The notes below the pieces were generated by a model, which was not told where the DNA came from, searched no databases, and saw only the letters and a program-made list of their open reading frames with translations. A program made the translations under genes and the position numbers. A stretch of 64,000 nucleotides of DNA from Escherichia coli (lineage in GTDB: Bacteria > Pseudomonadota > Gammaproteobacteria > Enterobacterales > Enterobacteriaceae): the NCBI RefSeq assembly GCF_050320075.1, contig NZ_CP190018.1. One strand, 5' to 3'. Positions within the stretch are counted from its first letter, which is position 1; each line of letters begins with the position of its first letter. Positions 59,190-62,128 of this stretch are shown here, piece after piece.

Positions 59190-60806
59190 ATGCTCAGTCA
59201 AATTCAACGCTTTGGCGGCGCGATGTTCACGCCAGTGCTGCTGTTTCCCTTCGCCGGGATTGTGGTGGGTCTTGCCATCTTGCTGCAAAACCCGATGTTT
59301 GTCGGGGAATCACTGACCGATCCGAACAGTTTATTCGCGCAAATCGTACACATTATTGAAGAGGGCGGTTGGACGGTATTCCGTAATATGCCGCTGATTT
59401 TTGCTGTCGGTTTACCCATTGGCCTTGCGAAGCAAGCGCAGGGGCGTGCTTGTCTGGCGGTGATGGTGAGTTTCCTGACCTGGAACTATTTCATCAACGC
59501 GATGGGAATGACCTGGGGAAGCTACTTCGGCGTCGATTTCACTCAGGACGCGGTGGCAGGTAGCGGGCTGACAATGATGGCGGGGATTAAAACCCTCGAT
59601 ACCAGCATTATCGGCGCGATTATAATTTCCGGCATTGTGACGGCGCTGCATAACCGTCTGTTCGATAAAAAACTGCCGGTGTTTCTCGGCATTTTCCAGG
59701 GGACATCTTATGTGGTGATTATCGCCTTCCTGGTGATGATCCCCTGCGCCTGGCTGACGTTGCTCGGCTGGCCAAAAGTACAAATGGGGATTGAATCTCT
59801 GCAAGCGTTCCTGCGTTCGGCGGGTGCGCTTGGGGTCTGGGTTTACACCTTCCTCGAACGTATTCTGATCCCAACCGGTTTACACCACTTCATCTACGGA
59901 CCGTTTATCTTTGGTCCGGCAGCTGTTGAAGGCGGCATTCAGATGTACTGGGCGCAGCATCTGCAAGAGTTCAGTCTGAGCGCCGAGCCGCTGAAATCGT
60001 TGTTCCCGGAAGGCGGTTTTGCCCTGCACGGTAACTCAAAAATCTTTGGTGCCGTGGGCATTTCTTTAGCGATGTACTTCACTGCCGCACCGGAAAATCG
60101 GGTAAAAGTGGCGGGCTTGCTGATTCCCGCAACCTTAACCGCCATGCTGGTGGGAATTACCGAACCGCTGGAATTTACCTTCCTGTTCATTTCACCGTTG
60201 CTGTTTGCGGTACACGCTGTGCTTGCGGCCTCAATGTCGACCGTGATGTACCTCTTTGGTGTGGTGGGCAACATGGGCGGTGGTTTGATTGACCAGGTTT
60301 TACCGCAAAACTGGATCCCGATGTTCAGCAACCACGCGGATATGATGCTGACCCAAATCGCCATTGGGTTGTGCTTTACCCTGCTGTACTTCGTGGTTTT
60401 CCGCACCCTGATTCTGCAATTCAACATGTGCACGCCGGGACGTGAAGATGCGGAAGTGAAACTCTACTCAAAAGCCGAATACAAAGCCTCGCGAGGCCAA
60501 ACCACCGCGGCAGAGCCAAAAAAAGAGCTGGATCAGGCTGCCGGTATCCTGCAAGCCCTGGGCGGGGTCGGCAATATCTCCAGCATTAACAATTGCGCGA
60601 CGCGTCTACGGATTGCACTGCATGACATGTCACAAACGCTGGATGACGAAGTCTTTAAAAAGCTGGGAGCGCACGGCGTCTTCCGTAGTGGCGATGCCAT
60701 TCAGGTGATCATTGGTCTGCATGTATCCCAGCTACGTGAACAGCTCGATAGCTTAATTAATTCTCATCAATCAGCAGAAAATGTTGCCATTACGGAGGCA
60801 GTATAA
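59190..60806 (+). CDS. glvC: PTS alpha-glucoside-family EIICB component (glvC-glvB-like, intact fused form)
   Basis: 538 aa from the ATG at 59190, preceded by AAGAGGA. Polytopic EIIC followed by an EIIB domain with the catalytic CATRLR motif. Track start 58983 is an implausible upstream extension. Confidence 0.8.
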
Positions 60807-62128
60807 TGACCAAATTCTCAGTGGTTGTCGCAGGCGGTGGAAGCACCTTTACGCCAGGCATCGTGTTGATGCTCCTGGCGAATCAGGACCGTTTCCCGCT
60901 TCGTGCACTGAAATTTTATGATAACGATGGTGCGCGGCAGGAAGTGATTGCTGAAGCCTGTAAAGTCATCCTTAAAGAGAGAGCGCCGGACATTGCGTTT
61001 AGTTACACCACCGATCCTGAAGTGGCGTTCAGCGACGTTGATTTTGTCATGGCGCACATCCGCGTCGGCAAATACCCGATGCGCGAACTGGATGAAAAAA
61101 TCCCGCTGCGCCACGGCGTTGTTGGACAGGAAACTTGCGGACCCGGCGGAATAGCGTACGGCATGCGTTCCATTGGCGGCGTCCTGGAACTGGTGGATTA
61201 TATGGAAAAATATTCACCAAATGCCTGGATGCTCAACTACTCCAACCCGGCAGCCATTGTCGCAGAAGCCACGCGTCGTCTGCGCCCGAATGCGAAAATC
61301 CTCAACATCTGTGACATGCCAATCGGTATTGAAAGCCGGATGGCGCAAATTGTTGGGCTGCAAGATCGCAAACAGATGCGCGTGCGCTACTACGGCCTGA
61401 ACCACTTTGGCTGGTGGACATCAATTGAAGATTTGCAGGGCAACGACCTGATGCCCCAGCTGCGGCAATATGTCTCGAAGCACGGTTATGTTCCACCGCA
61501 GCAAGATACACATACTGAAGCGAGCTGGAACGACACCTATGCAAAAGCGCGGGATGTCCAGGCACTGGACCCGGATACATTGCCGAACACCTATCTGAAA
61601 TATTATCTCTTCCCGGATTATGTCGTTCAGCATTCCAACCCTGAACATACCCGCGCGAATGAGGTGATGGAGCATCGCGAGAAACAGGTTTTCGATGCTT
61701 GCCGCGCCATTACGGCGGCAGGAAATTCAGCGGCGGGCAAGCTGGAAATTGACGAACATGCGTCATACATCGTCGATCTGGCGGCGGCAATTGCCTTCAA
61801 CACTCAGGAGCGGATGTTGCTGATTGTGCCTAACAACGGGGCAATCCATAACTTTGATGATGAAGCGATGGTCGAGATCCCGTGTCTGGTCGGGCACAAC
61901 GGACCAGAACCACTGGTGGTCGGCGATATCCCGCAGTTTCAGAAAGGGTTAATGAGTCAGCAAGTGGCGGTGGAAAAACTGGTCGTGGACGCCTGGGAAC
62001 AGCGTTCATATCAGCACCTGTGGCAGGCGATTACTTTGTCGAAAACGGTACCGAGCGCCGCGGTCGCCAAAGCTATTCTGGATGATTTGCTGGAGGCCAA
62101 CAAAGCGTACTGGCCAGAGTTACGTTAA
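60806..62128 (+). CDS. glvG: 6-phospho-alpha-glucosidase, glycoside hydrolase family 4 (GlvA/GlvG-like)
   Basis: 440 aa with N-terminal Rossmann motif [11 protein letters not shown] and GH4 features, start overlapping the PTS gene stop. Confidence 0.8.

Follow-up and report, generated by a model that had tools for sequence, protein, structure and literature searches.

A 64-kb window of the Escherichia coli chromosome (64,000 nucleotides of contig NZ_CP190018.1) carries, within the gene order ibpAB-yidE-yidP-glv-yidL-yidK, what is most probably an intact ancestral allele of the glv locus, a reading to which we assign a probability of about 85%. The predicted arrangement is a divergent regulator gene, yidP, facing a translationally coupled two-gene operon for an alpha-glucoside phosphotransferase system (PTS). 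The first gene of the pair, at 59190-60806 on the plus strand, runs to its stop codon with no internal stops and encodes a fused enzyme IICB (EIICB) of the alpha-glucoside subfamily with 538 residues, equivalent to GlvC plus GlvB of K-12 and to AglA of Klebsiella pneumoniae. The second, at 60806-62128 on the same strand, encodes a predicted NAD+/Mn2+-dependent 6-phospho-alpha-glucosidase of glycoside hydrolase family 4 (GH4) with 440 residues, which corresponds to an undamaged K-12 glvG and is the counterpart of K. pneumoniae AglB and Bacillus subtilis GlvA. At the junction of the two genes, GCAGTATAATGACC (GTATAATGACC), the TAA stop codon and the ATG start codon overlap by a single base (TAATG), and both genes have a Shine-Dalgarno sequence, AGAGGA at 8-9 nt 5′ of the ATG for EIICB and GGAGG at 8 nt 5′ of the ATG for GH4. 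The original prediction for this stretch had described a single 538-residue EIICB with a CATRLR motif, a full-length 440-residue GH4 enzyme and an overlapping stop and start, and each part of that description was borne out, with CATRLR beginning at residue 469 and both GH4 Pfam domains present in the second protein. RefSeq annotates exactly these two coding sequences in NZ_CP042899.1, a record with 100% identity, and the segment 59000-62300 shows 100% identity to strain CFSAN061763, which came from a raw-milk cheese in Egypt. What is said below about substrates, the EIIA partner, regulation and expression in the window strain is what we infer from sequence.

The intact state of the pair is best appreciated by comparison with K-12. 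In MG1655, the interval between yidP and yidL holds glvC (b3683), glvB (b3682) and the glvG pseudogene (b4556), and this locus was reportedly described as cryptic or as a pseudogene locus by Reizer et al. in 1994. Annotation and alignment together therefore confirm the K-12 state that the original prediction had described, with separate glvC and glvB genes and a truncated glvG. The alignment to these three K-12 genes, which had been proposed as a check, reveals a different organization in the two strains: base by base, the sequences share about 98.5% DNA identity and the same flanks and differ by substitutions apart from two lesions, both on the K-12 side of the comparison. One lesion lies in codon 369, which is CAG (Gln) at 60294-60296 on the plus strand of the window and becomes TAG in K-12 through a C>T change at 60294; the split between glvC and glvB is due to this nonsense change. 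The other is the loss of 508 bp, corresponding to 61399-61906 on the plus strand and bounded in the window by 8-bp direct repeats of GAACCACT at 61399-61406 and 61907-61914. Deletion between these repeats accounts for the truncation of glvG in K-12, where it causes a frameshift right after the conserved GLNH motif and removes the C-terminal half of the protein, including the Tyr263 region. Neither mark of K-12-type decay is present in the window, which has CAG at 60294-60296 and retains 61399-61906. K-12 EIICB also carries a P238Q substitution that the window lacks. The K-12 state of glv is derived.

The assignment of EIICB to the alpha-glucoside transporters draws on domain content, subfamily models and individual motifs. 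Pfam places PTS_EIIC (PF02378) at residues 10-346 with an E-value of 4e-71 and PTS_EIIB (PF00367) at residues 453-482. The NCBIfam model for alpha-glucoside-specific PTS transporter subunit IIBC (TIGR02005) matches residues 2-523 of 538 with a score of 959.2 bits, well above its curated cut-off of 607.3, and the protein falls under the cut-offs of each of the NCBIfam models for glucose, N-acetylglucosamine, MalX and beta-glucoside transporters. A full-length BLASTP alignment gives 81% identity between EIICB and the K. pneumoniae alpha-glucoside IIBC protein, and the amino-acid sequence of EIICB is the same as that of GlvC from O157:H7 Sakai. Within residues 320-329, the alignment to the K. pneumoniae protein includes the GITE motif of the EIIC domain, located at residues 322-325 and encoded at 60153-60164 on the plus strand. 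GITE is a sugar-binding motif in EIIC domains of the Glc family. In the EIIB domain, the putative phosphorylatable cysteine is Cys469 of the sequence NNCATRLR (codon at 60594-60596, plus strand), which lines up with the cysteine of CITRLR in PtsG (PDB 8QSR). Taken together, these features identify EIICB as a predicted alpha-glucoside-specific, Glc-family PTS transporter of the AglA/MalP/GlvC type. The GITE motif is the site of a change in Escherichia albertii, where the EIICB protein has 513 residues (locus L015, about position 6951): an in-frame 75-bp deletion removes the 25-residue segment that contains GITE, and because of this loss the E. albertii transporter is probably inactive despite its open reading frame.

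The second protein of the pair is equally recognizable. Both Pfam domains of the family are found, Glyco_hydro_4 (PF02056, E-value of 4e-66) and Glyco_hydro_4C (PF11975, E-value of 7e-56), and the closest solved structures are those of 6-phospho-alpha-glucosidases. The window protein has 89.5% identity with the enzyme of K. pneumoniae (PDB 6DUX/6DVV; 918 bits), and in the comparison with B. subtilis GlvA, another check proposed in advance, it shares 73% identity with PDB entry 1U8X (751 bits) and keeps the catalytic residues. Other GH4 entries, comprising alpha-glucosidases and an alpha-galacturonidase, score at most 83 bits, and the protein lies below the cut-offs of both the alpha-galactosidase and the AglA alpha-glucosidase models of NCBIfam. 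The NAD+-binding motif, with GGGS at residue 10, is identical to that of AglB and GlvA. Residues Cys169, Asp170, His200 and Tyr263 are conserved in the alignment to 1U8X and 6DUX and are equivalent to Cys171, Asp172, His202 and Tyr265 of GlvA, reportedly the Mn2+ ligands and catalytic residues of that enzyme. The motif CDMP stands at residue 169 and is presumably the signature of phospho-alpha-glucosidases. On this evidence, the GH4 protein is predicted to be a 6-phospho-alpha-glucosidase (EC 3.2.1.122) of the GlvA/AglB/MalH type. The exact protein of the window is present on at least 1000 public contigs.

Between them, the two proteins have every motif required for activity. Their closest characterized relatives, the alpha-glucoside systems of K. 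pneumoniae (AglA/AglB) and B. subtilis (GlvA), provide a model for how they could work together. The aglA-aglB pair of K. pneumoniae has the same design as the window, with a fused EIICB of 538-540 residues followed by a 440-residue GH4 enzyme and no EIIA of its own. According to PMC5309279, which cites Pikis 2006 and Thompson 2001, K-12 can grow on the sucrose isomers, isomaltose and methyl-alpha-glucoside when it expresses AglA and AglB of K. pneumoniae. This paper also states that AglA uses EIIA-Glc of the host, that GlvC of B. subtilis likewise depends on Crr when in E. coli, and that the AglA and AglB homologues of K-12 are regarded as cryptic or truncated (PMC5309279). A further relative of the Klebsiella/Citrobacter type (locus L017) shares with the window the divergent GntR/UTRA regulator and the ibpAB-yidE and yidL-yidK-yidJ flanks and differs in having a 4-nt stop-start overlap instead of 1 nt. 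The logic of the B. subtilis glvA-glvR-glvC operon (malA-malR-malP) is also the same, with uptake and phosphorylation by a PTS followed by hydrolysis by an NAD+/Mn2+-dependent GH4 enzyme, although there the hydrolase gene comes first. Its regulator GlvR is of the RpiR type, unlike the GntR/HutC-type YidP of the window. In O157:H7 Sakai, glvC (ECs_4623) and glvA (ECs_4622) are both intact, and the GH4 protein differs from that of the window at five residues. The EIICB and GH4 proteins of E. coli are not known to have been characterized biochemically.

By analogy with these systems, the EIIC domain would bind an alpha-linked glucoside, such as a sucrose isomer, isomaltose, maltitol or methyl-alpha-glucoside. 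Phosphate would pass from phosphoenolpyruvate through EI and HPr to EIIA-Glc (Crr, encoded elsewhere) and on to the fused EIIB domain, where Cys469 would accept it and pass it, as the sugar is taken up, to O-6 of the glucosyl moiety. With NAD+ and Mn2+ and by redox-elimination chemistry, the GH4 enzyme would then cleave the resulting 6-phospho-alpha-glucoside to glucose-6-phosphate and the aglycone. The operon is probably repressed by YidP as long as no phosphorylated alpha-glucoside occupies the UTRA domain of the regulator.

Synteny and substitution patterns speak to the age of the arrangement. The order ibpA-ibpB-yidE-(yidP)-EIICB-GH4-(yidL)-yidK-yidJ recurs in E. albertii, in the relative L017, whose EIICB falls in a 90% cluster with proteins of Klebsiella, Citrobacter, Raoultella and Enterobacter, and in a third relative with 85% identity. 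When the window is compared with six other intact E. coli alleles, the ratio of nonsynonymous to synonymous substitution rates (dN/dS) lies at 0-0.04 in the EIICB gene and at 0.07-0.12 in the GH4 gene; comparisons with other genera give 0.03-0.08. The shared gene order and the low ratios (0-0.12) show that the intact arrangement is the ancestral one and that purifying selection has acted on it, and the low ratios are in keeping with continued use of the two genes.

The distribution of the locus was surveyed in 5426 complete E. coli genomes. The segment 59000-62300 was matched at ≥95% identity in 5418 of them, and the locus itself, taken as at least 80% of the query covered, is present in 4267. 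The 508-bp GH4 segment is kept in 1652 genomes (30%), including O157:H7 Sakai, EDL933 and E. coli B; by subtraction, about 2600 genomes (48%) have the 508-bp deletion, and the whole yidP-glv cassette is absent from about 1150 (21%). Codon 369 was typed with 55-mer probes in which each 28-mer seed spans the single-nucleotide polymorphism. The CAG allele was found in 3921 genomes, or about 92% of the genomes with the locus, and the TAG allele in 348 of the 5426, all 100% identical to K-12 across the 55-base probe. This ratio makes the fused EIICB the norm of the species. About 2270 complete genomes carry the CAG allele without the hydrolase segment, and the EIICB reading frame is full-length in all six of the deletion genomes sampled (L020-L025). 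The P238Q change (codon 238, 59901-59903, within HHFIYGPF, which is otherwise invariant) occurs in five of the seven deletion alleles examined, K-12 included. Where the GH4 segment is undeleted, both reading frames are intact in six of seven sampled genomes. The exception is strain 67-1 (L007, NZ_CP035826.1), which keeps the 508-bp segment and has both glv genes annotated as pseudogenes, with an internal stop and a 1-bp frameshift; these lesions represent either an independent route of decay or an assembly error. The fully intact pair is thus a common minority state in E. coli, and since it is already annotated in reference genomes (as glvC and glvA in Sakai), it is a known and widespread allele.

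Genomes without the cassette show how the locus is lost. In NZ_CP031215.1 (L014, 1936-1984), 49 bp of unrelated sequence stand in place of window positions 58229-62157 (3929 bp), and cassette-less genomes still have about 46 bp from the 3′ end of yidP. Genomes like the B2-group strains of Touchon et al. may be among those that have lost the whole cassette. The neighboring gene yidL, which encodes an AraC-family regulator and runs convergently at 62125-63018 on the minus strand, overlaps the GH4 stop codon with its 3′ end by 4 nt. It is kept in genomes without the glv cassette with an altered C-terminus, which in the cassette-less genome is 9 residues shorter and different in sequence (…KNTDR*), and it probably lies outside the EIICB-GH4 system. 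A scan of 58700-62400 found no terminator 3′ of the GH4 gene.

On the other side of the pair, yidP (58179-58895, minus strand) encodes a 238-residue regulator of the GntR/HutC family with GntR (E-value of 7e-21) and UTRA (E-value of 1e-30) domains in Pfam. The gene is intact, has the same length as K-12 yidP and adjoins the EIICB-GH4 pair in every E. albertii and other enterobacterial locus examined, and YidP is presumed to be the repressor of the operon. The 294-bp intergenic control region between yidP and EIICB (58896-59189) contains conserved blocks in an alignment of four taxa. One of these is an imperfect palindrome, AGATGTCTAC...GTAGATCT, at 59011-59044, an inverted repeat with 17-nt arms that are 82% complementary and half-sites GTCTA/TAGAC. 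The half-site sequences ATGTC.A and GTAGA do not vary among E. coli, E. albertii, L017 and L018, and, given what is known of HutC-type operators, the palindrome is a candidate YidP operator. A second conserved block, the 25-nt sequence AAAAGCATGAAAGCGATCACGAATC at 59056-59080, is nearly invariant in the four taxa and bears a weak resemblance to a CRP site. In E. coli B (L012, NZ_CP115178.1, 1-192), yidP is annotated as frameshifted and the EIICB and GH4 genes are intact; if YidP is a repressor, the operon might be constitutive in that strain. E. coli B EIICB also carries two substitutions, L320P beside the GITE motif and G357S.

Several other explanations of the locus deserve consideration. 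Older annotations would make the system specific for arbutin or other beta-glucosides: the O157:H7 Sakai record uses the names "PTS system arbutin-like IIC component" and "putative 6-phospho-beta-glucosidase", and similar names occur in JGI annotations and in Table 5 of Touchon et al. 2009. Against this, EIICB exceeds the cut-off of the alpha-glucoside model and reaches only 43-45 bits with the beta-glucoside and arbutin models, whose cut-offs are above 600. The GH4 protein scores at most 211 bits against structures of 6-phospho-beta-glucosidases compared with 918 bits for the 6-phospho-alpha-glucosidase, and it contains the CDMP motif. We regard beta-glucoside specificity as highly improbable, and the Sakai names are probably outdated. 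A recent repair of the locus, or its horizontal import from another genus, is just as improbable an explanation of the intact state. Nothing specific favors it beyond the fact that the locus is polymorphic and that alleles are surely exchanged by recombination among lineages of E. coli. Identity between the cassette and other E. coli copies is 98-100%, compared with 81-90% at the protein level for other genera, the G+C content of the cassette (52-54%) is similar to that of the flanks, and the gene order is the same in E. albertii and more distant enterics. Moreover, the remnant of the yidP 3′ end in cassette-less genomes is what would be expected after deletion. An origin of the reading frames by chance or through an assembly artifact is practically negligible in light of family E-values down to 4e-289, the identical sequence in an independent complete genome and the many public contigs that encode the exact GH4 protein.

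A more serious alternative is that the reading frames are intact and the operon is silent, cryptic in the manner of bgl, cel and asc, so that an activating mutation or an unknown inducer would be needed and the strain would be alpha-glucoside-negative. A number of observations count against a working alpha-glucoside system. Pfam detects no EIIA domain in EIICB or in the operon proteins, and function would consequently depend on crr, which is located outside the 64-kb window. A simple scan of 58700-62400 returned no sigma-70 consensus promoter, when 3.0 would be expected by chance, and for this reason the promoter could not be located. A CRP site considered at 59061-59076 was rejected, as it has three mismatches to TGTGA-N6-TCACA and a search of the window for this pattern with up to three mismatches gave 192 hits, no more than the 224 expected by chance; the perfect site of the tna promoter at 31963-31978 served as the positive control for this search. 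To our knowledge, classical identification tables give E. coli as alpha-methyl-glucoside-negative, and if that is so, expression might be poor even from intact alleles. Furthermore, the repeated loss or damage of the locus within the species, through the 508-bp deletion, the cassette loss and the private lesions of K-12 and 67-1, suggests that selection is weak or intermittent. On the other hand, dN/dS values far under 1 among intact alleles argue for use of the proteins in the lineages concerned, conservation of the palindrome and the 25-nt block extends to genera with a functional system, and yidP is intact. Silence of the operon therefore strikes us as unlikely on balance, yet clearly the most plausible of the alternatives, and we continue to favor an intact ancestral allele that encodes an alpha-glucoside PTS operon.

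The main consequence of this finding is that K-12 misrepresents E. coli at glv. The split of glvC and glvB is a nonsense oddity, and the glvG state is a deletion allele that is widespread and not universal. The window strain, O157:H7 and E. coli B can probably take up and hydrolyze alpha-glucosides such as isomaltulose, turanose, isomaltose and maltitol, which is relevant to strain-level metabolic models and differential media. Neither a multi-omics paper comparing E. coli B with K-12 nor a BL21 phenome paper mentions glv, glucosides or maltitol. The predicted ability also bears on industrial strains, which now acquire it through engineering with foreign glvAC or aglAB, as noted in PMC5309279. 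A bolder idea, to which we give little credence, is that glv is a long-standing three-state polymorphism (intact; hydrolase deleted with the transporter kept; cassette lost) in which the transporter may act without the hydrolase. If this were true, the hydrolase-free transporter could have a role in sensing, in inducer exclusion via Crr or in uptake for another enzyme, and the intact allele of this food isolate would point to a niche in which alpha-glucosides derived from plants, honey or starch are plentiful. As it stands, the intact glv operon is real but ordinary, with little importance beyond bookkeeping.

The window differs from K-12 at other places as well. The original prediction had thought glv notable for being intact next to decaying neighbors, tnaB and yidZ. 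The decay of both neighbors is supported: in tnaB (start at 30085, minus strand), AAA (Lys325) has become TAA at 29111-29113, leaving a reading frame of 324 instead of 415 residues with no indels and with tnaC and tnaA intact, and in yidZ (start at 27555, minus strand), a frameshifting 10-bp deletion near 26903, at K-12 gene position 653, shortens the reading frame from 319 codons to 229. The contrast with glv thus stands, but the notability attached to it is diminished, as the intact state is ancestral and its GH4 segment is found in about 30% of genomes. Around 18650-22890, K-12 bglGFBH, yieL, yieK, cbrB and cbrC are absent, and the region holds instead an IS1 transposase fragment (18974-19477), a 182-residue reading frame on the minus strand and a 670-residue reading frame (20297-22309) with only a weak, sub-threshold match to pentapeptide repeats. 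About 2.5 kb of DNA is extra relative to K-12 in the mnmE-tnaC interval, and a 727-residue reading frame in this insert (32272-34455, plus strand) has the N-terminal domain of the ShET2 enterotoxin (PF07906, E-value of 3e-50). A BLASTN comparison of the whole window with K-12 yidX, expected between yidA and dgoR at about 46.7-47.6 kb, gave no match. Finally, dnaN (40475-41575) is 96.2% identical to K-12 with two gap columns and the same reading-frame length, compared with 98.7-99.2% for dnaA, recF and gyrB beside it, and this divergence relative to its neighbors suggests a recombined segment.

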